Shown piece after piece: positions 6,001-63,096 of a DNA stretch of 64,000 bases. Position 1 is the stretch's first letter, and each line of letters starts with the position of its first letter. This DNA comes from a virus. A program made the translations under genes and the position numbers. The notes beneath the pieces are model-generated. The model searched no databases, was not told the DNA's origin, and saw only the letters and a list, made by a program, of their open reading frames with translations. The stretch spans positions 64,001 to 128,000 of IMG/VR virus record IMGVR_UViG_3300032070_000613; one strand, written 5' to 3'.

Positions 6001-6644
6001 TGAATGCTCAGGCTAACTACACTGTGACGAATACTGTTTTTACAGCAGCATCCTATAAAAGATTTCACGAAACGCTACCCGCGGATAAAGATCTCCATAG
6101 CTGGATCGATAGCGTAATCATGGGGGACTATACGACAGGGATGGTCCAGATAGACATACTGCCTATAAAGGTAGAGGCCGTGGACTATGGACTGCTGGAG
6201 ATCATTCCTAAGACTCAGATGGTCACGGGTAATACGCCTGCGCATGGATATTTTGGTATACTGGGGGATATCCAGTGGATACAGATATCCGATCAGAATT
6301 TGCATGTACAGCTGAATTATATAAAGGAGAGGCTGGGGCAGCCCTGGAAGGATGCTCAGGGTAATGTACTCCTGGATAACTATACTCCAGAGAGATTTGA
6401 TACGCGCCCCGGCTATAATAATTTTTATGCGATTGATATGTCTAATTTTTTGGGGTATATGAAGACAGTGCGGTATAATCAGATCAAAAACAGTTTCGTC
6501 AATGAGGCCATAGTAAATAATAATTATTTCTGGCTGTACATGAAATTTCATAAGGAGTTCGGATGCGATCAGAGAGTGATAGCTCTGCAAAAACAGATAG
6601 CCTCAAAGAGCCAGGACCAGGAGACGATCGGGGATCTGGGCTGA
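18..6644 (+). CDS. Giant (>2200 aa) putative virion structural protein, probably 5'-truncated by the window edge
   Basis: The frame is open back to the window start (GAG ATC CTG TCT CAG ATG). It is beta-rich, has three copies of a ~75-aa module (F.V..D.L......W.V.DVV.F..T..LP.P.....YYV.SKTGTG.SIKL.VS.T.GG..DI.T.G.GIHT), and lies upstream of baseplate genes. Confidence 0.75.
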   Translation: MGSGGQSNDSGANNNAVQNYVGGLADLNYALRDEQIKKQLYLRFYQWYKDRLRNLSAELQLTLGFKFAHSNSLGLNNGQYTLDDEYVEDEDYTLTKDEDIDQISNGFSDFFPVGYDGTAPKYYDRFGREYLSYNSVYCCNIKRTNADRSVSTVGMIKSENPYWNRGLDFVVWDDAYVTKNLVANYSVDVPAADRTFSSGTYTFLKRVSVGDKVRVSKYKDYYEIDQIVSPPGKNYEYLILKTAFTSGLKKKKKKRGIKTFDVHLGSDGQSVMKNRAGTHIYFDQLMDALPPDGFSIYVQRQEKEPFPMADDYGSLGASAYGEQIEGQVTNTRRIKKPFLKLLLALLFPLSDSIAEETKNFKIQVKKDSEGPWEDLDPIDLSKLSFKEERNVDDVLDSLRYDFTEIASLPGKKFYDIKEDETKGFHQQFYLSFEKIYDADTPGGYFEGIVLRAKDRAWWFRIVDGGTEDIIDNYGFDSSNEYRNFYDPDNIFKKMLKEKQAWETESLIIKDLYDHSDKLARAFDQGDMNRANSRYQGYLAKQDISTLFTTTFSVTKEISGIISDILTTGINIPSGTFVTVSSTGGTLPVPLKEGTVYYVINTGDKKCRLATVTSNNQQGSDVNITAGGTKDSSKKTDTVPYSLKMDQANPEGISDVLTASIPAYEPQLGFLIDGQGPVYRTLYPDLVHPEDSASRSIAATYQQTSMALGIYSGAWQKEQFFKNLNYTNNSTWKNDYIRWVLGFSPGLIYQKDAKQMYEQNLGVITVGLKELPALRFRLVPSTVFSVENATLTVSWDNSGKYIRVIFDVVNIADPSDVDIGVSVVFKLYDIVSVKGIDTLIYKMLGEVCADINAYRFYKYSGVPLFSCEDIFAYYEYNITSKMLAVYGIPVDVATGAVLSVTTVEDHRSSDPRVLFLNKGIEDRLYTHVIRNIPAFNLGYTGDYYRQSLDGPAIQIINIAPMPNMSYSVNLDGAGKKQLVIKYGAPSLNLSAVFPIYNASTDTYKTLSELAQSINGYLYRTYNIFRATVLYTTYPAANLSADCLSLCNDFIPATLSAGHLTNIVYVHVQTGLDDIDPEINQGIYRVFYDTDARKKLEIRFNEIIVNGSRIEETRNTGARFVIDFQNPDGTFKTLTKFCTDVSVTEYKHTKLFTATPAHTDSPEATQYIIVDNTDRFLGFDKSDTVYMDTYTVDINDPATARSVLNTQNAYFSHPIYTSNGNPNKLPIDGIPVSGEWDTTVSEQVLSLSCKNGTTWEVTFNDYESGSNKSFKPTQEIINLIDTAHSLTEGQFQSIGNVEDRPVVAMIKELVLRRIPYADVTIISEIFTVDISTDELSVALPDWSVGDVVKFITTGTLPDPFVVNNIYYVISKTGTGNSIKLKVSSTSGGPVIDITTVGTGIHTVTRQSVNVLKISLRENDTINKLAAAINNARFNTDGQVDSDPDKGIIQYFTATVLGDTAIQGEYKSYELAAEYLPIIRSFSVVSATGSTFKQNYLIGWEIATTNLTVDQTDALTMSAKRYSPGDTYKFTVSPPDVAYTDTLLNNPQGFRRDILAFDVYCWDISGYFEIKDNWIYFRSALVGYTAESDMGQPDKTIGHGIPLAGSGHALAPANESIGALVARMNADSVVKKYFYVKLNFSRYQDATQKTLPENPGFFEYGYLPNYHVTVPQSQLDKVMLRNDSVMTLGPGVGYQFTASSYAINDAADTMDLSCSWQYSYEYSKEYVLTSALLDTISELVGVINTETAPYVSTSIFEAYVVGTHGSDASNTLMTGTGVIEEKDEHFTANVFTNQLSVSRTDWAVNDVVRFSSTFLLPTPLVAGTDYYVVSKTGTGTSIKLRVSTTFGGSPVDILTPGAGIHTIHRRYTNIYIATAVSAIQIKVRNLTGVNFSISSASFNRSPARNSLILRCRISYNDTSSFLGQNINMTMKDLAQTISDLRGYTDSIFPPLFSSTVINDMYLYMGADRLLDVVTGTISPGTVLYAHLNDLVAMYMLNMNAQANYTVTNTVFTAASYKRFHETLPADKDLHSWIDSVIMGDYTTGMVQIDILPIKVEAVDYGLLEIIPKTQMVTGNTPAHGYFGILGDIQWIQISDQNLHVQLNYIKERLGQPWKDAQGNVLLDNYTPERFDTRPGYNNFYAIDMSNFLGYMKTVRYNQIKNSFVNEAIVNNNYFWLYMKFHKEFGCDQRVIALQKQIASKSQDQETIGDLG
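3980..5605 (+). repeat. Two close copies (~3980-4225 and ~5360-5605) of a ~75-aa beta module; a more diverged third copy lies at ~1660-1900
   Basis: YYVISKTGTGNSIKLKVSSTSGGPVIDITTVGTGIHT vs YYVVSKTGTGTSIKLRVSTTFGGSPVDILTPGAGIHT; third copy GGTLPVPLKEGTVYYVINTG. Confidence 0.85.
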
Positions 6645-6805
6645 AAAGAGCCCCTGCCTGGCAGATAGTGGAGGCTGGAGAGAGTAATGGTTTTGCAAAA
6701 GAGTTTGCAGAGCCTATACTCATATTGATGGCCAGTCTGTTGAAAAAAGAAGTAGAGGCGATGGAGCAGCAAATAAAAAGGGAAAAACATGTCCGTGCGC
6801 GTTAA
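6563..6805 (+). CDS. Small hypothetical protein filling the gap between the giant ORF and the next gene; start uncertain
   Basis: Coding-like helical text (WQIVEAGESNGFAKEFAEPILILMASLLKKEVEAMEQQIKREK) spans the 144-nt gap. The called ATG overlaps the upstream gene by 82 nt. Confidence 0.45.
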   Translation: MRSESDSSAKTDSLKEPGPGDDRGSGLKRAPAWQIVEAGESNGFAKEFAEPILILMASLLKKEVEAMEQQIKREKHVRAR

Positions 6806-8534
6806 GTTTGATCTGATACCAGAGATAGTAAAGCCTAAACTGGATGGTTTAGATATCACTACTATCACTTTTTCTGATATGCTCCCCAACTCTACTCTGG
6901 CTAAAAAATCCGGGGTCCTGGCTACTAACAAAACGTCTCAGCCCAGCGGTCAGCAGCAAAAACAAAAAGGATATAAATGGGACAGCTGGTCCATGGACCT
7001 GAGCCTGTCTAATATGGCGGCTGCTGCAGAAGCTATAGAGATTTTCCTGCAGAAAGTAGATCAGCTGTCTAAAGTAATCACTCAGACTCTCAAAGTAATG
7101 CGGCTGCTCAGTGGTAATGTGAAATCCATAGCGATGTTTTTGAATTTCCTCATTAAAAAGGTAGCAGAGGCGCTGAAAACTTTTCTGAATTCTTTTTCAT
7201 CTACTGGCGTCTACATGAGTGTGGTGTGGCCGAGTATCGATCCTAAAGCCACTCCCAAATACACTATCCCGGTATATGGGGGATATCGAGAATTCATCAG
7301 CCGTGTGAATTTTGTTCTGACGAGCAGTAAGGATCCAGACGCCCCTAAATTTGATGATCCGAAAGATAAAGTGGGCGGTGTGATCCTAGCCATGATAGGT
7401 GGTGTCAGTGATCCCGAATTTCTTACGGACGCACTAGATAATTTCAGGAAATTGAGCCAATTTTTTGGATTTGCGTCTCCGCAGCCCTCCCCACCAAAAA
7501 ATTTAAAAGCTGTATCAGGATTTTACAAGAAGCCTACAGTATCTGAAAAGGTCATGGGAGTACAGCTGACCTGGAGTGCGCCGGATACCCCTGTGACTAA
7601 ATTCAGGATATATAAATCTACTACTACCAGGTCCAGAGCTAAAAATGCAAAAGAGGATGGTGAGGACATAGTAGTGAGAGTTTTTGGGGAAAAATTATGG
7701 GATGATCCCGCCGCGGAGTATGTGGAGATACCTCACATCTTCGGTAAATTTTATTTCAGATATACTGATTTCAAAGTAGAGAGTGGTAAGAAATATTATT
7801 ACAAAGTGTATAGTATGATGGGGGATAAATATTTTGAGACCAATCCCTCTAAAGAGGATATAAACAGTCCTGTAGCCAGCCCTATAGTATCATCCCAGCC
7901 CCGTAACTGTATATCTACGGATGAGTTGAAAAATTATACGACTCTGGGTATCAACGGGGAATTGCTGACACCATTCGATATGGAGGGAGACTGGCAGTCT
8001 GTCACTGTGCGTAGGCTGCTCGGTAAATCTCTGGATAGTATGTTCACGCAGATAGACGCTCTGGCGGACAAACTGACGGGACTGGTAAATACGGGCAGTA
8101 AGGCCATGACTGACTATCTCAAATATTATAGCGATAGAGTGGCATCTCTACTGGATTTAATATCGGAGTTTAGGACTATCGTGGAGAGGCTCTCCGCATA
8201 TAGTCTGCGTGGGACGTTCATGCTCCTCAGATTGAATATAGAAGAGGGAGGCATGAGACATTTCGTAGATAGATTCAATCAGGCCTGCCAGATAGATAAT
8301 ACTAAAGTGGATGATAAAAAAGGTCCCGCAGTGATTTCTAATAATTCAGGGATAGCCAAATATACTGAGAGAGGGATAATGCTCGGCGTGGTCCTTTTAA
8401 CAGGGATCCCCGTAGTCACTACAGCGAGACTCCTGGAGGAGGTATCCCCCAGTGAGGTAGATTCTCTGAAGAAAAATATTGAGAATACTGAGAAAGCGAT
8501 CACTACACTCATGAAGATGCTGGGACTGGGGTAA
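6789..8534 (+). CDS. Virion-module protein: central FN3-like domain flanked by two homologous helical regions
   Basis: FN3 signature PPKNLKA...VQLTWSAP...FRIYKS...YTDFKVESGKKYYYKVYS; duplicated motifs GGYREFISRV/GGMRHFVDRF and GGVILAMIG/LGVVLLTG. Confidence 0.7.
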   Translation: MSVRVKFDLIPEIVKPKLDGLDITTITFSDMLPNSTLAKKSGVLATNKTSQPSGQQQKQKGYKWDSWSMDLSLSNMAAAAEAIEIFLQKVDQLSKVITQTLKVMRLLSGNVKSIAMFLNFLIKKVAEALKTFLNSFSSTGVYMSVVWPSIDPKATPKYTIPVYGGYREFISRVNFVLTSSKDPDAPKFDDPKDKVGGVILAMIGGVSDPEFLTDALDNFRKLSQFFGFASPQPSPPKNLKAVSGFYKKPTVSEKVMGVQLTWSAPDTPVTKFRIYKSTTTRSRAKNAKEDGEDIVVRVFGEKLWDDPAAEYVEIPHIFGKFYFRYTDFKVESGKKYYYKVYSMMGDKYFETNPSKEDINSPVASPIVSSQPRNCISTDELKNYTTLGINGELLTPFDMEGDWQSVTVRRLLGKSLDSMFTQIDALADKLTGLVNTGSKAMTDYLKYYSDRVASLLDLISEFRTIVERLSAYSLRGTFMLLRLNIEEGGMRHFVDRFNQACQIDNTKVDDKKGPAVISNNSGIAKYTERGIMLGVVLLTGIPVVTTARLLEEVSPSEVDSLKKNIENTEKAITTLMKMLGLG

Positions 8535-25875: not shown

Positions 25876-28800
25876 ATGGCGTGGTCAACTCTTACTTCTG
25901 GTGATAATACCCAAGGCGTAGTTGCTTCTGCAGCTCTCTTTTCTCATAAGGGTCTTATAGGAGAAATCCTAAAACCCGGCTCTTTCCAGCAAGCTGCTTT
26001 AAAATACAATCATGCTGCTATTATAGATAATCAAGGAATGATATGGACTTGGGGAACTAATACTTATGGTCAGATAGGAAATAATTCAGTAACAGCTGCT
26101 ACGTCACCTATCTCTATAGTTAGAACAGGCTCATATATTTTTGTTAAAACAGGTTATAGTTTTAGTTTAGCTATTGATGCCTCTACAGGTAATATATGGT
26201 CATGGGGTTATAACAACTATGGCCAGTTAGGGGATAGTACTACAACAAATAGATCGTCATCGGTGATCATAGTCAGAACGGCATCTTATTCTCAAATATC
26301 CGCTGGATATGATCATTCTCTGGCCATAGATGCTACCACCGGTAATATATGGGCATGGGGTTATAATAATGTTGGTCAGTTAGGTGATGGAACTACTAAT
26401 AATAAATCTTCTCCTATAGCCATAGTTCGAACTGCCTCTTTCTCACAGATATCCGCAGGTTATCAATATAGCTTAGCAATAGATGCTACTACCGGTAATA
26501 TATGGGCATGGGGTTATAATAATGTTGGTCAATTTGGAGATGGAACTACTAATAATAAATCTTCTCCTATATCTATAGCTAGAACATCATCTTATTTTAA
26601 AATATCTGCTGGATATAACCACAGTCTATCTATCGATGCCTCTACTGGGAATGTGTGGGCATGGGGTAGTAATGGGGCTAATCCAAATAGCACTAATTAT
26701 CTTGGTAAATTGGGTAATGCTCCAACAGTTTATAGTTACAAATCAATGACGTTTGGTTATTATTCTTTTATTCTTTTAGATTCAACAGGTACAATTTGGA
26801 CTGGCGGTGGTAATACTTATGGTCAAGTAGGTGATGGTACAGTTATTGATCGTTCATCTCCTGTCTTGATTTTGCGATCGGCTTCTTACTCTAGTGTCAC
26901 GGCTGGAGCGTATACGGCAATGGCTATTGATGGCTCTACTGGTAATATTTGGGCATGGGGTTATAATAGTTCAGGACGATTAGGTGATAATACTACACAA
27001 AACAGGTCTTCTCCTGTAGCTATAGCTAGAACAGCATCATATTCTGTATTAGCTCCTTTGTATAATAGTAATCATTGTTTAGCTATTGATGCTTCGACTG
27101 GAAATATCTGGGCATGGGGATACAATAATTATGGACAGCTTGGAATAAATACCACGACAAATAGGTCTTCTCCTGTAACAATAGTTAGAACTGCTTCCTA
27201 TGTAGCAATAGCTGCAGGACCAGATTACAGTTTGGCCATAGATGCTACTACTGGTAATATATGGGCATGGGGCAGAAATTCGTATGGACAGCTAGGAGAT
27301 AATACTACAACAACAAAATCTTCTCCAGTCGCAATAGTTCGCACAGATTCTTATATAGCTATATCTGCAGCAGGAGATAGTTCTGGGCTTGGTTATGGTG
27401 TTAGCATGGCTTTGAATAGTTCAGGTACCGTTTACTGCTGGGGATATAATAATTATGGTCAGATAGGAGATAACACCATAACAAATAGATCTTCTCCAGT
27501 TGCTATAGCTAGTAATTTATCTTTCTCACAAATATCAGCAGGTTCTTATCAGTGTTTTGCCATAGATATTTCTACTGGTAATATATGGGGTTGGGGTGCT
27601 AATTCTGGTTCAGACTTGGGTGATGGAACATTCATAAATCGATCTTCTCCTGTTATGCTAGCAAGACAAATATCGTTTTCTGCGGTTAAAGGTGCTCCTG
27701 TTATTCCATCAGCTATTGAAGCAGAAACTGGATTTTTATGGATATGGGGACAAAATCTATATTATTATGATAGTCAATTACAATATTTAGTTTCTGGAAA
27801 TTTTACAGATGTAGGTTGGTACTATACTTCATATACAGTGCCTCAGTTTATTAGTAAGAATATAGCATTAGATAACCAATCATCTCCTGTAGCTATTACA
27901 AGAACAGCTTCTTACTCCAATATTTCAGCAGGATATCAACATAGTTTAGCCGTAGATGCTACCACCGGTTCTGTTTGGTCTTGGGGACAAAATATTGCTG
28001 GCGAATCTGCTATTGGGTATAATAATTCATCAGTATTAGTCCCCACAGCTATAGCAGGAAGTCGTTCTTATAAAAGTTTAAAAATAGCATATCAATCTAC
28101 TTGGTTACTTGATTCATCTGATTATTTATATGAAGCTAAGGTTTTAGCTACTCCACCAAAAATTAAAAATGGTACTTTCTCTGATATGTGTTTAGGGACC
28201 TGGTGTTCCTATGTAATTGATAAAAATACAGGAAATATATTAGTGCAAGGAACTAATGAGTATGGACAATTAGGAGACAACACCACAGAGAATAGGTATG
28301 TTTTGGCATCAACTGCGAGAACAGCATCTTATTCTAAAATTGTTTGCTCGATGCAACCTCCGACTGCTACGACAATGTCAGCTATGGCTATCGACGCCTC
28401 GACTGGAATGATTTGGAGTTGGGGATATAATAATTACGGTCAGTTAGGAGATGGCACTAGAACTGATCGTTCGTCTCCTGTAGCAATACAAAGAACAGCT
28501 TCTTATATCAGCATAGCACGGGGATATGCTCATAGTTTAGCTATTGATGCGTCTGATGGATCAATATGGTCATGGGGACATAATGAGGAGGGTCAGTTAG
28601 GAGATAATACTACACGACATAGATCTTCTCCTGTATCTATAGTTCGATCTGGATCGTATAAAACTGTTACAGCAGGATTTACGTCTAGTTTTGCTATTGA
28701 TGCTTCGACGGGTATGGTATGGGCTTGGGGGCTTAATGTAGGTGGTCAGCTTGGCGATAATACTATAATAAATAAATCTTCTCCTGTATCTATAGCGAGG

Positions 28801-30474
28801 GTCGGGTCGTATTCAGAAGTTGTTTCAGGGTATTATACTAGTGGAGTGATCGATGCATCTACTGGTATGGTTTATATGTCTGGTAGTAATACTAATGCTA
28901 GTCTTGGGAATGGTACAAATATTAATAGATCTTCTCCAATAGGTATCAGTCGAATAGGATCTTATAGAAATCTTACTATCAGTAATGACCAATATATTAA
29001 TGGGGTCGGAGTAATTGATGCGGCAACAGGGTATGCTTTTGTGTGGGGTTTAGGTCTTGATGTACCTTTCCCAGGGACGTTACTTGCAAATGATTTTAGA
29101 TCGGGGCTTCTATGGTTTAATATTTCTCCTCAGCAAGTTATAAATACTAATTCGTTTGCTCAAATAGCTGCCGGATCTAGTGCATCTCTCTTTTTACCGC
29201 AGAATTATTCTGTATGGGCAAATTTTACCAAAGATACTATACATACAAATACAATGTCAGATGTTCATTTTACATCCACTTTTATTAACAATCCTGTTAG
29301 TTGGACATGGTACTTTGGAGATAGCACTTCAGTAGATGCAAACCCTACTCATGCTTTTACTATCTTTGGTTCACCTTTGCCTATTTCTTTAGTAGCACAA
29401 GGATCATTTGGAGATCCCTATACGGCTACTGATTCTATTAGTATATACTCACCTACTCAGATATCCAACAAAAACACAGTTTATATGTGTGGTTGGGGTA
29501 ATGCCTGGGCTTCGAATGGCTATGGGAATATTAATTTAAATTATCTCGCCCCACTAACTGCAACAGCAATAGATATAGGATATAGACAATTTACTAATCT
29601 ATTTATAGAGAAAGATACTAACTTTGTATGGGGGTTCGGTAATAATAATGCAGGTCAATTAGGAGATAATAGCTTAACTAATAGGACTATTCCTACTTTG
29701 ATTAAATCTGAATCATTTAGTAAAGTAGTTTGTGGCTATAATAATTCTGCTGTTATTGATTCTAATTATATGCTATATGTGACTGGATTAAATACCTATG
29801 GTCAAATTGGTGATGGAACAACTATTAATAGGTCTACTCATGTAGCTGTAGTTCGCACAGGATCTTATGCTGATACTGTTCTTAGTCTGTATCATTCGTT
29901 AGCTTTAGAAAAATCAACAGGAAATATCTGGGCGTGGGGTTATAATAACTACGGTCAGTTAGGTGATAATACTACACAAAATAGATCATCTCCTGTAGCT
30001 ATAGTTAAAACAAGTTCTTTTATTAAAGTTACAGCTGGAGATTATTTCTCAGCTGTTTTGGAAGATACAGGTATAGTATGGACATGGGGTTATAATAATT
30101 CCGGGCAATTAGGAATAAACAATGTTTCATCAATGTCATCTCCTATGAGCATAACACGATCTTCATCATACAGCGATATATCAGCTGGTAATTCGCATAT
30201 GCTAGCACTGGATGGTTATACTGGAATGATTTGGACTTGGGGTCTTAATACATCGGGTCAGTTAGGAGACGGCACTATTCAGAATAGATCTTCTCCTATA
30301 GCTATAATTAGAACAGCATCATATATAGCAATTGCGGCGGGGGTATCTACATCGTATGCTGTGGATTCTACTGGTCTTGTTTTTGGATGGGGTATTAATT
30401 CAAATAATGAAATTGGTAATTATTCTGCCATTAATTATTCATCTCCAGTTATAATAGCTAAGGTTACTTTTTAA
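25876..30474 (+). CDS. RCC1/BLIP-II repeat protein (~27 blades, about four propellers) with one PKD domain
   Basis: ~51-aa repeats AIDA.TGNIWAWG.N.YGQLGD.TT.NRSSPV.I.RTASY..I.AG..HS; PKD WTWYFGD...NPTHAF. Confidence 0.9.
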   Translation: MAWSTLTSGDNTQGVVASAALFSHKGLIGEILKPGSFQQAALKYNHAAIIDNQGMIWTWGTNTYGQIGNNSVTAATSPISIVRTGSYIFVKTGYSFSLAIDASTGNIWSWGYNNYGQLGDSTTTNRSSSVIIVRTASYSQISAGYDHSLAIDATTGNIWAWGYNNVGQLGDGTTNNKSSPIAIVRTASFSQISAGYQYSLAIDATTGNIWAWGYNNVGQFGDGTTNNKSSPISIARTSSYFKISAGYNHSLSIDASTGNVWAWGSNGANPNSTNYLGKLGNAPTVYSYKSMTFGYYSFILLDSTGTIWTGGGNTYGQVGDGTVIDRSSPVLILRSASYSSVTAGAYTAMAIDGSTGNIWAWGYNSSGRLGDNTTQNRSSPVAIARTASYSVLAPLYNSNHCLAIDASTGNIWAWGYNNYGQLGINTTTNRSSPVTIVRTASYVAIAAGPDYSLAIDATTGNIWAWGRNSYGQLGDNTTTTKSSPVAIVRTDSYIAISAAGDSSGLGYGVSMALNSSGTVYCWGYNNYGQIGDNTITNRSSPVAIASNLSFSQISAGSYQCFAIDISTGNIWGWGANSGSDLGDGTFINRSSPVMLARQISFSAVKGAPVIPSAIEAETGFLWIWGQNLYYYDSQLQYLVSGNFTDVGWYYTSYTVPQFISKNIALDNQSSPVAITRTASYSNISAGYQHSLAVDATTGSVWSWGQNIAGESAIGYNNSSVLVPTAIAGSRSYKSLKIAYQSTWLLDSSDYLYEAKVLATPPKIKNGTFSDMCLGTWCSYVIDKNTGNILVQGTNEYGQLGDNTTENRYVLASTARTASYSKIVCSMQPPTATTMSAMAIDASTGMIWSWGYNNYGQLGDGTRTDRSSPVAIQRTASYISIARGYAHSLAIDASDGSIWSWGHNEEGQLGDNTTRHRSSPVSIVRSGSYKTVTAGFTSSFAIDASTGMVWAWGLNVGGQLGDNTIINKSSPVSIARVGSYSEVVSGYYTSGVIDASTGMVYMSGSNTNASLGNGTNINRSSPIGISRIGSYRNLTISNDQYINGVGVIDAATGYAFVWGLGLDVPFPGTLLANDFRSGLLWFNISPQQVINTNSFAQIAAGSSASLFLPQNYSVWANFTKDTIHTNTMSDVHFTSTFINNPVSWTWYFGDSTSVDANPTHAFTIFGSPLPISLVAQGSFGDPYTATDSISIYSPTQISNKNTVYMCGWGNAWASNGYGNINLNYLAPLTATAIDIGYRQFTNLFIEKDTNFVWGFGNNNAGQLGDNSLTNRTIPTLIKSESFSKVVCGYNNSAVIDSNYMLYVTGLNTYGQIGDGTTINRSTHVAVVRTGSYADTVLSLYHSLALEKSTGNIWAWGYNNYGQLGDNTTQNRSSPVAIVKTSSFIKVTAGDYFSAVLEDTGIVWTWGYNNSGQLGINNVSSMSSPMSITRSSSYSDISAGNSHMLALDGYTGMIWTWGLNTSGQLGDGTIQNRSSPIAIIRTASYIAIAAGVSTSYAVDSTGLVFGWGINSNNEIGNYSAINYSSPVIIAKVTF
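26327..26572 (+). repeat. Recent 153-nt-period duplication of an RCC1 blade
   Basis: atagatgctacYaccggtaatatatgggcatggggttataataatgttggtca...gatggaactactaataataaatcttctcctata occurs twice almost identically. Confidence 0.85.
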
Positions 30475-34363: not shown

Positions 34364-36064
34364 ATGAATATAGATCCTCGTCATATTAAGCAAATATCAG
34401 ATACTAAGGCAACATTATCTGGTGCTGGTCCAAAAAGATTAAAAAAGAAGCAGATCGCTATTCAAGAAGATCTCTCTGCTAAAAGATTGTCTTTCAGAAC
34501 ATCTCTGAATGAATATGTCGAATGCGCAAATGTAGCTGATGCCACAGGCATTACCGGTCCTGCTGGTATACCAGGACCTACAGGGCCCTCAGCGGGTCCT
34601 CAGGGAGATACAGGATTACCAGGTCCTACGGGTATAGCAGGGACTTATGGGTTAACAGGATTGCCAGGGATACAGGGGCCTACAGGAGCTTTTGGTGGTG
34701 CTCCTGGAGAGACAGGATTGCTTGGGGCTACTGGCGTCCGCGGCATGACAGGTATTAACGGTCTTATAGGCAGTACTGGATCGCAAGGTTTAACGGGTGC
34801 GTCTGGTGTGACAGGTATTTCTGGAGTGACTGGTGATCAAGGAAATACGGGCGTCCAAGGTTTAACTGGTTCTCAAGGAGCTACTGGAGTATCTGGCGTT
34901 ACAGGATTGTTTGGTGTGACTGGAGATCAGGGGAATACAGGAGTACAGGGTGCGACTGGTGTAGGTCTGCAAGGAGTCACAGGAATTGGTGTCACAGGTC
35001 TCAGTGGGGTAACCGGCTCTCGAGGAGAGACGGGATCTCAGGGTCTCACCGGATTGATTGGAATCACAGGGCTCGAAGGGAGTACGGGTGTCCAGGGAAT
35101 AACTGGTGAACCTGGTTTGACCGGTATGCCTGGAATCACTGGTCAACAAGGCGCACAAGGGCTCACAGGTATCATAGGGATTACAGGAGCTCTTGGGACT
35201 ACAGGTTTTGTAGGAATTACAGGTTTTCAGGGAATAACAGGTCTGCAAGGATCCCAAGGGATAACTGGAGAACAGGGTGCTACAGGAGCTCTTGGGACTA
35301 CAGGTTATATAGGAATCACGGGTCAACAGGGAGCTCAGGGGCTCACAGGTGTTATTGGGCTGACCGGATCTCAAGGCATTACGGGAGAGCCTGGTCTAAC
35401 AGGAATTTTAGGCATTACAGGGATTGTTGGAGTTCAAGGTTTAACGGGAGATCAGGGATCTCAAGGATTGACTGGTACTATTGGATTAACAGGAACTATT
35501 GGAATTACAGGACAGCAGGGAGTATTTGGATTAACGGGATATGCTGGTATCACAGGTCCTGAGGGAGCTGGTGGTAATACGGGAGCACAGGGAGTAACTG
35601 GGAATCAAGGAGAAACAGGAGCTGGAATTCAAGGATCGACGGGATTGCGGGGATCAACCGGGATGTCTGGTATTGGTAGTGCAGGAGGCGTCACAGGAAT
35701 GATCAATATCACATTCAACGGTAATAGCAATCCTGTGTCTACAGGCGAAAAAACCATAATAAATCTACCGTTTAATTTACAGCTGGATGGCTGGAGATTT
35801 CTAGCGAATGCGACAGGGAGTATTTCTGTTGATATGGCCATCTCTAGCTATACTAATTATCCTTTTACAGGGCCTCTTATGCATGCCGGTTCTACAGGTC
35901 CTTATATATCTGCTGGAATAAAAAATGAAGATACAGATCTGAGTGATTGGGTTAATGCAACGGGAGCGGCAGGAGAACTAATCAGAGTTAGTGTAGGATC
36001 CGTGACAGGGATTTCTATGGCATATCTTTCTTTAAATTATCATCAACTCTATAATGTCATTTAA
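34364..36064 (+). CDS. Long Thr-rich collagen-like fibre protein with a C-terminal globular domain
   Basis: Several hundred residues of G-x-T-G-x-x repeats; SD AAGGAG upstream; the last codons and stop are supplied by the inserted element. Confidence 0.9.
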   Translation: MNIDPRHIKQISDTKATLSGAGPKRLKKKQIAIQEDLSAKRLSFRTSLNEYVECANVADATGITGPAGIPGPTGPSAGPQGDTGLPGPTGIAGTYGLTGLPGIQGPTGAFGGAPGETGLLGATGVRGMTGINGLIGSTGSQGLTGASGVTGISGVTGDQGNTGVQGLTGSQGATGVSGVTGLFGVTGDQGNTGVQGATGVGLQGVTGIGVTGLSGVTGSRGETGSQGLTGLIGITGLEGSTGVQGITGEPGLTGMPGITGQQGAQGLTGIIGITGALGTTGFVGITGFQGITGLQGSQGITGEQGATGALGTTGYIGITGQQGAQGLTGVIGLTGSQGITGEPGLTGILGITGIVGVQGLTGDQGSQGLTGTIGLTGTIGITGQQGVFGLTGYAGITGPEGAGGNTGAQGVTGNQGETGAGIQGSTGLRGSTGMSGIGSAGGVTGMINITFNGNSNPVSTGEKTIINLPFNLQLDGWRFLANATGSISVDMAISSYTNYPFTGPLMHAGSTGPYISAGIKNEDTDLSDWVNATGAAGELIRVSVGSVTGISMAYLSLNYHQLYNVI

Positions 36065-36280
36065 AAATGACGTTGTGGGAGTCTAGGGAGCTTATTCAAT
36101 AAAATGAATATGCAGACGTTACAACCAAAGTTCAAGAACGTACCTACGGATGCTTCACTAGTCCGTAGCTCTACAACTCTACCATTAAACAGGAACGAAA
36201 GCGCCAGTGTGGTAGAGAAAGTACTGAGTTGTAACAATCCCGAAGTGAATCTACGGAAACAGGTATCCGGACTTACAGTC
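36047..36280 (+). ncRNA. omegaRNA (HEARO-type) scaffold of IscB copy 1; boundaries approximate, guide expected immediately upstream
   Basis: CTACGGATGCTTCACTAGTCCGTAG stem, CTCTACCA/TGGTAGAG, ACAACTC/GAGTTGT, GTTACA/TGTAAC, TTCACT/AGTGAA pseudoknot, TAAACAG; highly conserved with copy 2. Confidence 0.82.
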
Positions 36281-37462
36281 ATTGTACCTGTACTCTCTTT
36301 GGAGGGGAGTCCTCTAATGCCGTGCACTCCAGTTAAAGCACGGCACCTTTTAGAAAAAAGGAGAGCCCATGTCGTAAAACTAAATCCTTTTATTATTAGA
36401 TTGAATTTCAAGTGTGAAAGCATAGTTCAGGAAATCAGTTTCGGAATGGATGCCGGATACAAAAATATTGGATATTCAGCGATTACAGATACAAAAGAAA
36501 TTTTATCAGGTGAAATAGCTCTGGATAATAAAACTAAAAGCAGAATGAACGAAAGAAAAATGTATAGAAGAAATAGAAGGTATCGTCTGAGGTATAGAAA
36601 ACCAAGATTCGATAATAGGGTAAAACCCGAGGGATGGCTCCCTCCCTCTATAAAGAGAAAATTTGATACCCATATAAATTTCATAAAAGGGCTCAAAAAA
36701 ATGTTACCTATCAAAAAGGTCACAGTTGAGATAGGAAATTTTGATATTCAAAAGATAGAGAATCCCGATATCTCTGGAGTCCAGTATCAGCAGGGTGATT
36801 TATACGGGTATTATAATTTGAAACTCTATCTTTTGGAGAGGGAAAAAGGAAAGTGTCAACTCTGCGGGAAAAAATTCACTAAAGAAAATAAACCCCACAT
36901 GCACCATATAAAACAAAGGAGTGAGGGTGGTACTAGTAGAGCTGAGGGTATCGCTCTTATACATAAAAGTTGTCATGAAGATTTGCATAAGAAAAAATTA
37001 TTTCATAAATTGAAACCAGCTAAAGCTTATAAAGCAGAAACTTTTATGTCTATAGTTGGAGGGATGTTCAAGAAATTTTTAGATTGTGATGTTACTTACG
37101 GATATGAGACGTGTGCTAAAAGAAAAGAGTTAGGTTTAGAGAAATCTCATGTGAATGATGCCTTTGTTATAGCCGGAGGGACTATTCAAACTAGATGCCT
37201 ACCTAGTATGATAGAGCAAAAGAGAATTAATAACAGGACTCTGCAGACGAATAGAAAAGGTTTTTCTTCTTCTATTAGGAAACAGAGGCATAAAATACAA
37301 AATAGAGATTTTATTTGGATTAGTGGTAAAAAATATTTGAGTGGAGGCGTGGCTAGTAGAGGGACTCAGGTATATTATTTTGATGGGAGTGAGAAGAAAC
37401 TCATCCCTTCTAAAAAGATTGAAAAAATTTATAATACTGATAATTTGATTTGGCTAGATTAA
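36104..37462 (+). CDS. iscB: IscB RNA-guided endonuclease (PLMP, split RuvC, RRXRR bridge helix, HNH)
   Basis: PLMP; GMDAG (RuvC-I); RRNRRYRLRYRKPRFDNR; VEIGNFD (RuvC-II); CQLCG...HHI...GG...CHEDLH; SHVNDA (RuvC-III). Confidence 0.95.
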   Translation: MNMQTLQPKFKNVPTDASLVRSSTTLPLNRNESASVVEKVLSCNNPEVNLRKQVSGLTVIVPVLSLEGSPLMPCTPVKARHLLEKRRAHVVKLNPFIIRLNFKCESIVQEISFGMDAGYKNIGYSAITDTKEILSGEIALDNKTKSRMNERKMYRRNRRYRLRYRKPRFDNRVKPEGWLPPSIKRKFDTHINFIKGLKKMLPIKKVTVEIGNFDIQKIENPDISGVQYQQGDLYGYYNLKLYLLEREKGKCQLCGKKFTKENKPHMHHIKQRSEGGTSRAEGIALIHKSCHEDLHKKKLFHKLKPAKAYKAETFMSIVGGMFKKFLDCDVTYGYETCAKRKELGLEKSHVNDAFVIAGGTIQTRCLPSMIEQKRINNRTLQTNRKGFSSSIRKQRHKIQNRDFIWISGKKYLSGGVASRGTQVYYFDGSEKKLIPSKKIEKIYNTDNLIWLD

Positions 37463-37487
37463 ATGTCGTTATAGAGTTAAAAACAAT

Positions 37488-59083: not shown

Positions 59084-59779
59084 ATGATAATCGTTAAAAC
59101 TGTTAAAGAGTTCGTGAAACAAAATGAGAAACATCTCATATGGTTTTTGCAATATAAAACGGGTATCAACGATAGAGAAATGATCGATGATACTCTGCAG
59201 GAATTTTATATGCGTCTGTACCAGACAAAAGCTCTGGAGTCCTATGATGAAAAACGAGGTACTTTTGATACCTATATCGGCAATCTTTTCTGCTGGATGC
59301 TACCTTTCTTATCCAGGAAAAATTTCAAATACAGGCACACTCTGATGCCTAAACGGTATCGGGATAAATATCTGGATAAAAATGAGAAAGGCATTAGTAA
59401 TAATCATATGTATGATTATAGGATGATGTCCTATGTGAATAAGGATAACAGCAAAATGTGGGTGGATGGGGATGATGTTTTTAACTACGTCCACGAGAAT
59501 AGTGCCACATTTAAAATCAGCAAAGCATACGAAACATCTTATTTTGATACAGATGAAGATCCAGCCCTATCCGGATATCTGGAGAGTTTTAAAACATATA
59601 TCCGTGAGACAGAGTCCCCCAGGAGTGCGGAGAAAATGATACTGTTTTTGGAGCAGAGGGTGGCGGGATGCAAAGGCGTCGAGATAGCAGGTATGATGAA
59701 AGTATCAAATAACATGGTAAAAATCATCAAACATACTCTAAAAAGGAAATATGATACATGGCAGACGATAGACGCATAG
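59084..59779 (+). CDS. Sigma70/ECF-like phage sigma factor
   Basis: DDTLQEFYMRL...YDEKRGTFDTYI (region 2-like); GCKGVEIAGMMKVSNNMV (region 4 HTH-like). Confidence 0.65.
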   Translation: MIIVKTVKEFVKQNEKHLIWFLQYKTGINDREMIDDTLQEFYMRLYQTKALESYDEKRGTFDTYIGNLFCWMLPFLSRKNFKYRHTLMPKRYRDKYLDKNEKGISNNHMYDYRMMSYVNKDNSKMWVDGDDVFNYVHENSATFKISKAYETSYFDTDEDPALSGYLESFKTYIRETESPRSAEKMILFLEQRVAGCKGVEIAGMMKVSNNMVKIIKHTLKRKYDTWQTIDA

Positions 59780-60464: not shown

Positions 60465-61627
60465 CCGATGAAATAGACATCAGTGACATCCTGGAAGATG
60501 AGGTGGAGGAGAGTCCCGCTCAATCCCAAGTGACTCCGGCTATCCCCGACTCTCCAGACAGCCCCGCCCGGAAAGAAATAGCGCAGCTGAGAGATCGTCT
60601 GAGAGTATCTCACGAGCACTGCCGTGATCTTTTCGTGGATATGAGGACTGTGGACTACATAGCTACTCCCGATGACTCCTATATCGAATTTCTGGATAAA
60701 AATTATTACGACAAAAGGCTGTATTTTAAAGTGGACCCTCAGAGACCGAATGATCCTAAAATCATAATAGCCCAGCAGCAATTTTGCAAGCTGCTAGGTA
60801 TCCCCTATAAATTTTTTGCCGCTAACAGGCCCTCCCTGAAAATGAACATCGTGAAGACCTGGCAGGCAGGCCTGACCGCGGATGAGAGTAAAGCCCAGAG
60901 CGTCCTCAAAATTCGGGAGTCTAAAGATTGCTCTATCATCAGAGCATTCATACCAGTAACTAAATGCTGCGTACCTCTCTATGAACTCATAGACATAATC
61001 CTGAATGGCGTGACTATCCCTCTCACAATGGAGTTCGTGTACGGGGATGAAAGGGATGATTTGATATTACACGCCCGTTTTCTTTTTAACAAAGAATATA
61101 CGGTACTGGGATCTAAGGTGTGCGTGGGATTTTCTTTGATAGCGTCTGAGCTGGATGCCTCCCCATTCATAATAGAAATCTTTTTACATGATAAAGAGTT
61201 TGCAACTTCGTATATTAGTACATATGGCGGGGACCCCTTTTTCAAGTCTAAATATGACGGTATCAAAGCGGATCAAATTAAAGATCTGATCCCTAAAATG
61301 TTAAACAGAATCGATAGTGAAGCTCCCGAAATGATAGAAAGGGTAGAGAAGAAAGTATCCGATACTATGCAGAGCGGATTTTTTTGTGCGGAAACTGAGT
61401 GCGTATCGCTACTGAAAGCTAAGGGTATCAACGGCAAAGTGAAAAAAGCGGTATATCATCAGATTACTGAGTGCCAGGATAAAATCAAAACTCCCTGGGA
61501 TATTGCTCGTCACGTGGGTCTGGTGGCTAAAGATTTAGATTCGATAAAGAGGCTCGCTGTAGAGCGGGCTATAGGTCAATATTTGCGACTAACTTTTTCT
61601 AACCCTACAACGTCATATAAAAAATGA
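60461..61627 (+). CDS. DUF932-like protein; the last codons come from the inserted element
   Basis: QFCKLLGIPYKFF...IRAF pattern; acidic N-terminus. Confidence 0.55.
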   Translation: MTDEIDISDILEDEVEESPAQSQVTPAIPDSPDSPARKEIAQLRDRLRVSHEHCRDLFVDMRTVDYIATPDDSYIEFLDKNYYDKRLYFKVDPQRPNDPKIIIAQQQFCKLLGIPYKFFAANRPSLKMNIVKTWQAGLTADESKAQSVLKIRESKDCSIIRAFIPVTKCCVPLYELIDIILNGVTIPLTMEFVYGDERDDLILHARFLFNKEYTVLGSKVCVGFSLIASELDASPFIIEIFLHDKEFATSYISTYGGDPFFKSKYDGIKADQIKDLIPKMLNRIDSEAPEMIERVEKKVSDTMQSGFFCAETECVSLLKAKGINGKVKKAVYHQITECQDKIKTPWDIARHVGLVAKDLDSIKRLAVERAIGQYLRLTFSNPTTSYKK

Positions 61628-61840
61628 CGATGTAGGAGTCTAGGGAGCTTATTCAGTAACATGAATATGCAGACGTTACAACCAAAGTTCAAGAACGTAC
61701 CTACGGATGCTTCACTAGTCTGTAGCTCTACAACTCTACCATTAAACAGGAACGAAAGCGCCAGTGTGGTAGAGAAAGTACTGAGTTGTAACAATCCCGA
61801 AGTGAATCTTCACTGGAAACGGGTATCCGGACTTAAAGTC
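61603..61840 (+). ncRNA. omegaRNA (HEARO-type) scaffold of IscB copy 2; boundaries approximate
   Basis: Same stems as copy 1; CCGTAG->CTGTAG turns a G-C pair into G-U. Confidence 0.82.
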
Positions 61841-63022
61841 ATTGTACCCGTACTCTCTTTAAAAAGGAGTCCTTTAATGCCTTGCGGTTTGATCAAAGCT
61901 CGTCACTTAATTAAAGGAGGTAAAGCAAAAGTAGTTAAACTGAACCCACTAGTCATTCAGCTTAAATTTGACTGTGAAAACCAGATCCAAGATGTTTCTT
62001 TAGGTATTGATTCAGGCTATAAAACTATTGGATTCTCGGCTGTTTCTGAAATAAGAGAAGTTAGCGCTGGTGAGCTGAATCTAGATAATGGAACATCAAA
62101 AAAGTTAATAGAAAAGAAAATGTATCGAAGGCATAGAAGAAACAGGCTGAGATACAGAAAACCAAGATTTAATAACAGAAAAAAATCTTCTGGGTGGCTT
62201 CCTCCTTCTATTCAGAGAAAATTTGATACGCACCTCAATCTGATAAAAAAGATAAAAGCTATAGTACCGGTTAAGAAGCTAACCATAGAGATAGGGGAAT
62301 TTGATATTCAAAAGATAATGAACCCTGAGATTTCAGGCAAAAAATATCAGCAAGGTAATTTATTTGGGTATAATAATATGAGGTCTTTTTTGATAGCTCG
62401 TGAGAAAGGGAAATGTCAGTTATGTGGAAAAAAGTTCAGTAGAGATGATCCCTCTCATATGCATCATATAAAACCAAGGATTATGGGAGGTACTGATAGA
62501 CCCGATGATTTAGCTTTGGTACATAAAAGCTGTCATGATAAGATTCACAAGGAAAAACTTTTTAACAAACTCAAAAAAGCCAAGGAGTATAAAGCTGAGA
62601 CTTTTATGGCTATTGTAGGGGCTAAATTTAAAAAAGTTTTGGATTGTGATATTACATATGGGTATGAGACTAAGACTAAAAGAGATTTATTGGAGATAGA
62701 TAAAAGCCATATCAATGATGCATTTGTAATAGCTGGTGGATCTACGCAGAAAAGATGCAAGCCTTATAAAATAGAACAGAAAAGGATCAACAACCGGACT
62801 CTGCAGACTAATAGGAAAGGTTTTTCAAAATCTATTAGGAAACAGAGGCATAAAATACAAAACAGGGATTTCATTTGGATTGATAGTAAAAAATATTTGA
62901 GCGGGGGCGTGGCTTGTAGAGGGACTCAGGTATATTATTTTGATGCGAATGAGAAGAGGCTTATATCTTCAAAAAAGATAGAAAAAGTTTATCATACAGG
63001 GAGTTTAGTGTGGCTAAATTAA
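61661..63022 (+). CDS. iscB: IscB RNA-guided endonuclease
   Basis: PLMP; GIDSG; RRHRRNRLRYRKPRFNNR; IEIGEFD; CQLCG..HHI..GGTDRPD..CHDKIH; SHINDA. Confidence 0.95.
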   Translation: MNMQTLQPKFKNVPTDASLVCSSTTLPLNRNESASVVEKVLSCNNPEVNLHWKRVSGLKVIVPVLSLKRSPLMPCGLIKARHLIKGGKAKVVKLNPLVIQLKFDCENQIQDVSLGIDSGYKTIGFSAVSEIREVSAGELNLDNGTSKKLIEKKMYRRHRRNRLRYRKPRFNNRKKSSGWLPPSIQRKFDTHLNLIKKIKAIVPVKKLTIEIGEFDIQKIMNPEISGKKYQQGNLFGYNNMRSFLIAREKGKCQLCGKKFSRDDPSHMHHIKPRIMGGTDRPDDLALVHKSCHDKIHKEKLFNKLKKAKEYKAETFMAIVGAKFKKVLDCDITYGYETKTKRDLLEIDKSHINDAFVIAGGSTQKRCKPYKIEQKRINNRTLQTNRKGFSKSIRKQRHKIQNRDFIWIDSKKYLSGGVACRGTQVYYFDANEKRLISSKKIEKVYHTGSLVWLN

Positions 63023-63096
63023 ATGACGTTGTAGAGCTAAAAAAAATTGAAGAAATTTTTGATGCTATTATCCTCAAACACATAATAAATGATATT

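Follow-up and report, generated by a model that had tools for sequence, protein, structure and literature searches.

IscB is the likely ancestor of Cas9, and to our knowledge its biology has so far been explained wholly within the IS200/IS605 cycle, in which single-strand excision is scarless, the TAM is the target of TnpA, and homing restores the copy. Structurally, the IS200/IS605 (ISC) elements that carry IscB end in a subterminal hairpin on each side, lack inverted repeats and do not duplicate their target (PMC4810608, PMC13565253), and the guide lies at the 5' end of the IscB omegaRNA (PMC13565253). TnpB also occurs with IS5-family (ISL2, IS1031) and IS630 DDE transposases and terminal inverted repeats (TIRs) (PMC10691335, PMC13565253). 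Carriers of this TIR/DDE kind are described for TnpB and Fanzor and, in the literature searched, not for IscB. In the window (the whole 64,000-nucleotide stretch of DNA analysed here), which belongs to a large sediment phage, we found two IscB elements, element 1 and copy 2, that are probably non-autonomous TIR transposons with an omegaRNA and iscB as cargo, inserted at NTAR with duplication of the target, and for which we propose a mover, an RNA and a homing step below. The initial annotation had gone as far as suggesting an undescribed element class, which is too strong, since TIR/DDE transposons that carry TnpB or Fanzor have been described before (PMC10691335, PMC13565253).

Element 1 lies between TCAA and TTAA and carries only an omegaRNA and an intact iscB (Table 1). 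Its TIRs match at 16 of 18 nucleotides, which none of 200 shuffles equalled; the best inverted-repeat alignment of its ends spans 20 nt with 2 mismatches and was likewise reached by 0/200 shuffles. For copy 2, whose symmetry reaches 12 nt into the flanks, 0/200 shuffles gave as good an inverted repeat. When folded as single-stranded DNA, the left ends of both copies form a hairpin (z -3.2 to -5.9), and the right ends form no significant hairpin on either strand (z +1.9, +1.2, +0.5, -0.3). The initial annotation had seen a TIR-bounded element of this length, with only an omegaRNA and iscB inside and no self-contained hairpin at its right end; the shuffles, the folding, and the HEARO and domain matches bear this out. 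The internal arm a', almost invariant across the family, repeats the right TIR in direct orientation. One contig of sequencing run X2 stops exactly at 36046, and none of the assembled contigs of the sequencing runs joins across element 1.

Table 1 Features of element 1 and copy 2 (positions in the window).
Feature	Position	Strand	Remarks
Native left flank, 3' end of collagen-like gene	36031..36046	+	Empty alleles L152-L156 natively carry ...TATCATCAA
Left flanking 4-mer TCAA	36043..36046	+
Element 1	36047..37476	+	1430 bp
Left TIR CTCTATAATGTCATTTAA	36047..36064	+	18 nt; also predicted 5' strand of first omegaRNA stem
Stop codon of interrupted collagen-like gene	36062..36064	+	Comes from left TIR
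Internal arm a' ATGACGTTGTGGGAG	36067..36081	+	Pairs with left TIR, partly by G-U/G-T, giving omegaRNA 5' hairpin
omegaRNA scaffold, Rfam HEARO RF02033	36069..36254	+	88.7 bits, E 1.3e-16
iscB, ~405 aa	36245..37462	+	PLMP/RRXRR RuvC and HNH domains; putative GTG start
Right TIR TTAAATGTCGTTATAGAG	37459..37476	+	18 nt; overlaps iscB stop codon; no nearby hairpin partner
Right target-duplication copy TTAA	37477..37480	+	One mismatch to left TCAA
Purine triplet AAA 3' of duplication	37481..37483	+	Right flanks tabulated over insertions
Copy 2	61599..63040	+	CTAA, 1434-bp element (61603-63036: TIR, omegaRNA, iscB, TIR), CTAA

Functionally, the cargo has the composition of an IscB/OMEGA effector, with an RRXRR (PLMP-RuvC) protein containing an HNH insertion (PF14239, 5e-59; PF01844, 1e-8) and a HEARO RNA upstream. 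Residues of catalytic type (acidic, His/Cys) are invariant in the alignment of the 10-member clade, and the omegaRNAs of element 1 and copy 2 (85.4 bits) both score above the RF02033 gathering score of 83. In the alignment of element 1 to this model, the two inner hairpins of the canonical 5' domain are deleted (model positions missing). The canonical GTCAA... HEARO 5' domain, without a TIR, is kept in relatives from cellular genomes and in most viral relatives, and the CTAAAG-loop end hairpins typical of the canonical relatives are missing here. The exact omegaRNA word had 0 matches in IMG/VR and 0 in 185,579 prokaryote genomes.

Across metagenomes and IMG/VR, the left arm is present in 12 copies, with IscB proteins 55-91% identical, and the TIR core CTACAAC...GTTGTAG is found in eight full members. 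The inverted repeats of the clade are 12-18 bp long and conserved in at least nine relatives, and insertions of the element at four or more different sites are seen in close relatives. The covariation of the ends between the two copies that the initial annotation had pointed out (CTATA/TATAG in element 1 vs CTACA/TGTAG in copy 2) is real, and it is stronger among the relatives, where the inner part of the TIR changes end to end (GTCAT/ATGAC vs GAAAC/GTTTC, the latter pair in L137 and L139) while arm a' stays constant; it is not strict, however, as the site 4 element of L141 has CTACA on the left and TATAT on the right, and its ends match poorly (6/10). An exact-arm scan of IMG/VR for CTACAACGTCAYNTAA gave more than 100 chance matches, none with omegaRNA features. 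Among other copies, L004 shows its left hairpin in duplicate and has ends that are not well defined, and L005 is flanked by inverted sequences of 51 nt; these flanks were considered as a TIR of the element 1 kind and set aside, since their appearance is that of a solo end hairpin belonging to a canonical element next to L005.

Related phages yielded three empty alleles, for site 1 (element 1), site 2 (copy 2) and a further site 4, and in 3/3 the left boundary is the outer tip of the repeat. At site 1, the empty allele (L152-L156) reads ...AAC TAT CAT CAA CGA TAA T ATG, giving a native gene end of ...NYHQR*, and not the clean stop of the allele ...AAT TAT CAT TAA that the initial annotation had reconstructed with TTAA as the target. 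TCAA is the native 4-mer, with the right TTAA differing from it by one base; both flanking 4-mers align onto the single TCAA of the empty allele, and once one 4-mer is removed the downstream ATG follows after 7 nt in both alleles. No close homologues were found for the collagen-like C-terminal domain at this site; distant collagen-like homologues stop 2-3 residues past a Y[FRH] motif, which fits the boundary, and the proteins flanking sites 1 and 2 have no close relative in IMG/VR. At site 2, the empty alleles (L147-L151) read TTTTCTAA/GGAC... (slash, insertion point), placing the left boundary after CTAA. To the right of this insertion, collinearity with the empty allele is lost: ~29 nt are absent and ~100 nt have diverged strongly, identity being 28-52% over the 100 nt that follow the element and 88-100% thereafter. 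Site 4 provides a clean pair, in which the phage studied here is the empty allele (GAGTAAAATAGATAG/GAATTTTT) and L141 the filled one, reading ...TAGATAG (CCCTAC...TTATATAG) ATAG GAATTTTT with the element in parentheses; the flanks are 94-100% identical between the two alleles, with no flank divergence. An empty-allele check, proposed with the initial annotation, finds the boundary at the repeat tip with a single 4-mer at sites 1 and 4, but collinearity fails on the right side of site 2.

At sites 1 and 4, the filled alleles carry one 4-mer more than the empty ones. When nine independent insertions are compared, the two flanking 4-mers agree at 27 of 36 positions (permutation p = 0.0026), and four of the nine pairs are identical (p = 0.027), namely ATAG/ATAG (site 4), CTAA/CTAA, ATAA/ATAA and CTAA/CTAA; three further pairs have one mismatch, and two are discordant (ACGG/GTAG in L136, CAGG/ATAG in L140). 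The right 4-mer is always NTAR. Two elements that are 89.5% identical differ in their right 4-mer, which in each case equals the left flank of the element concerned or comes close to it (TTAA with TCAA, ATAG with ATAG). Because the left and right 4-mers match beyond a shared consensus, we read them as a true target-site duplication of 4 bp at NTAR; and because the right 4-mer of site 4 is contiguous with native flank while the left 4-mers are native at three sites, one copy is extra. The 4-bp duplication of the initial annotation is thereby confirmed, at sites 1 and 4 and by the covariation, and its YTAA target has to be widened to NTAR. A 2-bp duplication of TA, of IS630 type, would fit site 4, yet it makes the terminal bases of the element vary with the flank, so the 4-bp reading is the more economical.

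Much of the layout is that of ISC elements such as ISC2-1_KR, ISGst5 (GstIscB) and OgeuIscB: a HEARO-type omegaRNA lies directly upstream of an IscB of ~400 aa (PLMP/RuvC/HNH) and overlaps it, the element is ~1.4 kb, non-autonomous and followed by a conserved short motif on its 3' side, and a co-oriented gene ends where the element is inserted, which allows the flank to serve as guide. Unlike them, this clade has inverted repeats of 12-18 bp, a 4-bp NTAR duplication, no right-end hairpin, and an omegaRNA whose 5' domain appears to be replaced by a stem from the left repeat. Three traits of an IS200/IS605 element (hairpins at both ends, duplication-free insertion, no TIRs) are thus absent, and two of a TIR transposon (repeats at the exact boundaries, a duplication of fixed length, 4 bp) are present. 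The TnpB elements with DDE transposases (DDE-1 to DDE-6: IS630, ISL2, IS1031; Altae-Tran et al. 2023) and the eukaryotic Fanzor TIR transposons likewise place an OMEGA nuclease in a symmetrical-ended transposon that makes target-site duplications, with nuclease and guide RNA adjoining one end and the flank supplying the guide; theirs, however, is a guide at the 3' end, often with a DDE transposase encoded in the element, whereas here an IscB goes with a 5' guide RNA apparently fused to the left repeat and with no encoded transposase.

With respect to ends and target, IS5 duplicates YTAR (PMC5009759). The IS5 group, with its MITEs and mobile insertion cassettes, resembles this clade in its short TIRs and TA-centred 4-bp duplication, and its non-autonomous derivatives are mobilised in trans; unlike IS5, the first target base here is often A (ATAA/ATAG), so that the likeness in target is only approximate (NTAR). 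We also take the repeat sequence of the element to be unrelated to the IS5 repeat. The piggyBac junction reads ttaa/ccctagaaagata (PMC6642342), to which the L135 junction, ttaa/ccctacaacgtca, is identical at 9 of 13 positions; as in piggyBac, with its CCC...GGG ends, 4 bp are duplicated, and ...GGG is the terminus of three members (L135 and L140, and L006 with GTAGG). This is a resemblance only, and unlike in piggyBac and the related prokaryotic IS1380, the target here is not strictly TTAA.

The search for a mover covered a 141-kb contig of this phage (only ~30% of it) and five other IscB-bearing phage records, which are fragments. Y1 TnpA (PF01797), the finding of which would have spoken for canonical transposition, had no match in any of the six; IS1380 and IS4/IS5 transposase models had none in the contig, nor did the IS4/IS5 model in the five related records. 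The piggyBac model, too, had no match in the contig, but since it matched 0/14 control genomes, this blank is uninformative. No transposase with matching ends was found among the phage records searched, so that a DDE mover of the element is a proposal. As a contrast, a TnpB element in the sister phage is bounded by two hairpins, CCCACG...CGTGGG, and its insertion brings no duplication. Taken with the three allele pairs, the conservation of the repeats, the covariation of the left and right 4-mers, the right end free of a hairpin and the blank for Y1 TnpA in the contig, this contrast supports the central proposal of the initial annotation, a non-autonomous TIR element with a 4-bp duplication and not an IS200/IS605 element.

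Could these nevertheless be atypical IS200/IS605 (ISC) elements moved by a Y1 HUH TnpA, the repeat being the outer arm of one end hairpin that resembles the other end, and the 4-mers TAM and TEM? In the literature searched, all IscB elements described belong to that family (PMC4810608, PMC10691335), TAM and TEM are alike by design (Meers et al., 10.1101/2023.03.14.532601), a strong hairpin is indeed present at the left end, and the right 4-mer is invariably NTAR; moreover, TnpB elements of the canonical IS605 type are mobile in this phage lineage, so that a Y1 TnpA can probably be drawn on. We nevertheless consider this reading distinctly unlikely: a TAM/TEM assignment in either orientation conflicts with left 4-mers that are native at 3/3 sites and with the covariation of 4-mers between the ends (p = 0.003), which a transposon-encoded motif would not show, while the right 4-mer of site 4 runs straight into native flank, the right end is without a hairpin, and the CTAAAG-loop hairpins of the canonical relatives are absent. 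A related proposal, that repeat and 4-mers are remnants of a palindromic, terminator-like target hit by a canonical GTCA.../ATGA ISC element, draws on the canonical termini (5'-GTCA and right-flank ATGA; PMC4810608) being readable inside the repeats (GTCAT ... ATGAC), on the symmetry of copy 2 extending into its flanks, and on the inverted flanks of L005. It has next to no chance of being correct: at the position of the repeat, the three empty alleles carry CGATAAT (site 1), GGACTGAGG (site 2) and GGAATTT (site 4), so the arms are not native, which refutes the model; no empty palindrome of such a kind occurs in the 141-kb contig, and the arm is common to copies in many different contexts.

It is also conceivable, though unlikely, that no transposase is involved and that the element spreads by IscB-guided cutting with recombinational repair (homing), at times by illegitimate recombination, its repeat having an RNA or regulatory role, for example as an omegaRNA stem or in pairing with the 3' end of a transcript. 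Consistent with this, none of the transposase types searched for turned up in the six phage records, the divergence of the right flank at site 2 resembles a co-conversion tract, the left repeat belongs to an RNA stem that tolerates G-U pairs, and each of the three empty alleles either departs from the guide or is without the purine motif. Homing accounts for spread at one site, however, not for new sites, and here at least four sites are occupied, each time bounded exactly by the repeat tips and accompanied by an additional 4-mer; changes in the right repeat follow those in the left one where a', the RNA partner of the left repeat, stays the same, and site 4 is without any flank divergence.

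The inverted repeats, the boundaries at their tips, the 4-bp duplication, and the presence or absence of the element at three sites are real, and IscB, the likely Cas9 ancestor, seems to have switched carrier here, since inverted repeats and a duplicated 4-base target replace hairpin ends and scarless insertion. Mechanistically, we posit for this TIR transposon that the element is moved in trans by a DDE-type, cut-and-paste transposase, encoded by the host or outside the sampled part of the phage genome, with a target preference that would resemble that of the IS5 group (YTAR) or of piggyBac (TTAA, CCC ends). The left repeat appears to have become part of the omegaRNA, where it would supply the 5' strand of the first stem and take the place of the 5' domain that bears hairpins in the canonical HEARO. 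Read-through from the co-oriented upstream gene would then make the flank, ending in the duplicated 4-mer, the 5' guide of the RNA, and from the known architecture of IscB omegaRNAs, the native left flank in Table 1 is presumed to be a 16-nt guide-coding segment of the precursor. An RRA motif follows the target duplication in 9/9 insertions and, judged from sequence, is a candidate TAM; by cutting empty alleles, in which a purine-rich motif follows the 4-mer, IscB could allow the element to home into co-infecting relatives or to be restored after excision. A bolder version, which we regard as highly improbable, is that the phage IscB clade is an OMEGA module that switched from HUH 'peel-and-paste' to double-strand TIR/TSD transposition, the first omegaRNA stem being the transposase-binding repeat, and, most radically, that there is no separate transposase and the IscB-omegaRNA complex or an unknown phage factor recognises the ends and inserts at NTAR-RRA.

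If this clade does keep its guide RNA and nuclease under TIRs and target-site duplication, the logic of using the flank as guide would be compatible with a different transposition chemistry, something that had been seen earlier only for TnpB and Fanzor. The compact 5' end of the omegaRNA may also interest engineers. Additionally, the filled and empty phage alleles form a natural set for testing RNA-guided homing between co-infecting phages, and bear on how the demands of a TAM and of a transposase target can be squared if the duplicated target forms the end of the guide.

Both IscB elements lie in a 141-kb sediment phage contig from IMG/VR, estimated to be ~30% complete, whose positions 64001-128000 form the window, and we are highly confident that they are terminal inverted repeat (TIR) elements with a 4-bp target-site duplication (TSD) rather than IS200/IS605 elements. 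Between the repeats of copy 1, no further credible gene was found besides the omegaRNA and the IscB ORF; in an alignment of relatives, IscB is intact and catalytic-type residues are conserved in the nuclease.

IscB element features and 4-mers flanking the nine insertions (plain coordinates, window positions; G000, whole phage contig; L-numbers, other contigs or records)
Feature	Position	Left 4-mer	Right 4-mer	Remark
Copy 1, junctions	36043-37480	TCAA	TTAA	TCAA / CTCTATAATGTCATTTAA ... TTAAATGTCGTTATAGAG / TTAA
Copy 1, omegaRNA	36069-36254			Rfam HEARO, 88.7 bits vs gathering score 83
Copy 1, iscB	single ORF between repeats			RRXRR (5e-59) and HNH domains
Copy 2	61603-63036	CTAA	CTAA	
Third omegaRNA copy, without protein	L003:1503-1750 = G000 137431-137680			9.4 kb past window end
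L135		TTAA	ATAA	
L136		ACGG	GTAG	
L137		ATAA	ATAA	
L139		CTAA	CTAA	
L140		CAGG	ATAG	
L006		ATAA	ATAG	
Site 4 (L141)		ATAG	ATAG	

The two copies are mosaics, with omegaRNAs 96-100% identical, central iscB 58-74% identical, and the last 200 nt (IscB C-terminus and right repeat) 80-94% identical, a pattern that points to recombination, or to the RNA and the C-terminal (TAM-reading) part evolving in concert. The third omegaRNA copy, which shares 88% identity with copy 1, has the same left repeat, after GTAA, and neither iscB nor a right repeat; a TTGACA-N17-TATATT-like promoter lies ~60 nt upstream, a structured-looking non-coding run lies downstream, and the locus is also present in metagenome contig L141. 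Outside the window, a 645-aa ORF (G000 5149-7086), whose RRXRR/RuvC-like N-terminal part is 33% identical to IscB residues 10-162, lacks HNH and is an IsrB-like, third OMEGA-type gene of the same phage.

When the left 135 nt are aligned in inverted orientation with the right 190 nt, the terminal pair scores best, and its score is reached in 0/200 shuffles for each copy. In single-stranded DNA, the left repeat (arm a) pairs with an internal arm a' to give the left ends a strong hairpin (z -3.2 to -5.9), and the right ends fold on neither strand (z +1.9 to -0.3), which, with the shuffles, upholds the initial annotation in its reading of inverted repeats instead of two end hairpins. The inner part of the repeat differs in step at both ends (GTCAT/ATGAC in copy 1, GAAAC/GTTTC in L137 and L139) while a' is nearly invariant across the family, so the symmetry reflects an end-to-end constraint rather than following from the RNA hairpin. 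The proposed co-variation of the ends is seen in these matched changes but is not absolute, since L141 pairs a CTACA-type left end with a TATAT-type right end.

Empty alleles were found at three sites. The cleanest empty/filled pair is site 4, where L141 carries an element just after a ligase gene, 89.5% identical to copy 1, and this phage, with flanks 94-100% identical, has no insertion: the empty allele reads GAGTAAAATAGATAG / GAATTTTT and the filled one GAGTAATAGATAG[ CCCTACAACG...CATTATATAG ]ATAG GAATTTTT, with one extra ATAG. At the copy 1 locus (site 1), five empty contigs (L152-L156) have a LamG gene directly after the collagen-like gene in conserved gene order, and their ...AACTATCATCAACGATAATATG corresponds to ...AATTATCATCAA[element]TTAAAAACAATATG in the window. 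In a three-way alignment, left TCAA and right TTAA both map to the empty allele's single TCAA, and once one 4-mer is removed, the ATG is 7 nt away in both alleles. The empty site 1 reconstructed earlier, with a protein ending ...NYH*, proved wrong, as the native protein in relatives ends ...NYHQR*. PKD, LamG and collagen-like genes surround this site, and a giant structural gene holds, at 26000-30400, a long array of 153-nt (51-codon) RCC1-like repeats (WGxNxxGQLG). In an independent sediment run (X2), a 3.3-kb assembled contig stops exactly at 36046, the element's left boundary, and the right junction is spanned by a contig of lower depth (35 vs 23); the break could reflect a mixed filled/empty population, which contigs alone cannot tell.

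At the copy 2 locus (site 2), the upstream protein has 388 aa here and 382-383 aa, ending ...TFSKD*, in members of its 90% cluster, and in the empty contigs L147-L151 the next gene follows 7 nt on, without IscB. The junction, TTTTCTAA / GGACTGAGG... when empty and TTTTCTAA / CCCTACAACG... in the window, shows that the left repeat came with the insertion and is not native flank, and that the left CTAA is native. To the right, identity to the empty allele is 28-52% over the first 100 nt, then 88-100%, and ~29 nt are missing, so that this boundary is unreadable. In both copies, the upstream genes now end at stop codons furnished by the left repeats; the gene downstream of copy 2 (63010-63040) lacks the native RBS and start codon of the empty allele (MSEQKAP...) and may now start at a GTG within the iscB 3' end, preceded by GGGAG.

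In IS200/IS605 elements, the target motif at one side has a similar counterpart at the other that belongs to the transposon (Meers et al., 10.1101/2023.03.14.532601), and two such motifs could mimic a duplication. However, when right 4-mers were permuted among elements (n=9 insertions), the observed match at 27/36 positions was reached by 0.26% of permutations, and the four identical pairs among nine by 2.7%; right 4-mers of closely related elements differ, each following its own left flank; and the left 4-mer is native in 3/3 empty alleles. For these reasons the flanking 4-mer is a TSD, with consensus NTAR, which excludes IS200/IS605 membership (PMC4810608, PMC13565253). The 4-bp duplication first proposed from copy 1 is thus confirmed by the permutations, the extra ATAG at site 4 and the site 1 alignment; the pairs in L136 and L140 are discordant exceptions.

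The IscB elements also differ in appearance from canonical IS605-type TnpB elements of the same phage lineage. In a sister phage (L147/L148), such an element (L147:2058-3326), which has a CCCACG...CGTGGG hairpin close to each end, has inserted precisely between window positions 59779 and 59780 with zero added bases, showing that canonical elements are mobile in the lineage and of the expected appearance; a further copy, 86% identical, lies at G000 27199-28470. The insertion point, empty in this phage, is right after the TAG stop of a 231-aa gene, and a TTTAT-like motif lies on the tnpB 5' side.

ISC/IscB elements have been described without inverted repeats or duplications (PMC4810608), and in a 2023 survey the IS200/IS605 superfamily takes in all known OMEGA systems (PMC10691335). 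That survey also reports DDE transposases and inverted terminal repeats for six branches of TnpB (PMC10691335), DDE-associated branches being named ISL2, IS630 and IS1031 in a 2026 review (PMC13565253), and many eukaryotic TIR transposons host Fanzors (PMC10691335, PMC13565253). In a full-text literature search, no IscB element of this kind turned up in connection with inverted repeats, target-site duplication or DDE transposase; given this and the TnpB precedents, we class the IscB element as the counterpart of DDE-associated TnpBs, in this case phage-borne and non-autonomous, the repeat apparently being merged with the guide RNA.

Scanning metagenomes for a word conserved in the omegaRNA yielded 12 contigs, which, with L006 from IMG/VR, all keep the left tip CCCTAYAAYG. 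Its complement stands at the right end of seven full members, as CGTTGTAG in five and with one-base differences in L136 (AGTTGTAG) and L140 (CGCTGTAG); no right repeat was detectable in L143. IscB proteins of this repeat-bounded family are 55-91% identical. Other relatives, in IMG/VR (50-56% identity) and cellular genomes (48-55%), have a canonical HEARO 5' domain (GTCAA...), whose inner hairpins often bear CTAAAG loops, and lack a significant terminal repeat; in the Rfam alignment, copy 1 has the hairpin-bearing 5' domain deleted. The form bounded by repeats seems to be a derived clade, to date seen only in sediment phage contigs. In another phage (L005), 51-nt inverted flanks (2673-2723 and 4180-4230), each containing a terminator-like hairpin with compensatory changes, surround a canonical GTCAA-type IscB element and may represent an adjoining solo end of a related element.

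Y1, IS1380, piggyBac and IS4/IS5 models had no match in the 141-kb contig (the piggyBac model without a working positive control), nor did Y1 and IS4/IS5 models in five other IscB-bearing phage records, all fragments. The element is polymorphic for presence at several sites among related phages, and a cut-and-paste (DDE-type) transposase would act on it in trans. Its NTAR target resembles the YTAR of IS5 (PMC5009759), and the junction ttaa / ccctacaacgtca in L135 resembles the piggyBac junction ttaa / ccctagaaagata (PMC6642342), both as likeness, not membership.

The left repeat would serve also as the first omegaRNA stem, which in copy 1 needs G-U pairs, and the upstream flank, made by read-through from the co-oriented gene, would be the guide. 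An RRA motif lies 3' of the right 4-mer in 9/9 insertions and is a candidate TAM or part thereof, and IscB would cut empty alleles. These have CGA in place of RRA and one guide mismatch at site 1, two guide mismatches at site 2, and a 2-nt indel 10 nt from the 4-mer at site 4, as would be expected of uncut survivors, a pattern that at n=3 proves nothing. To the right of copy 2, the diverged tract resembles one left by co-conversion; site 4 flanks have no such tract. Taken as a whole, an explanation in which a DDE mover acts in trans and the element also homes is, in our judgement, reasonably likely.
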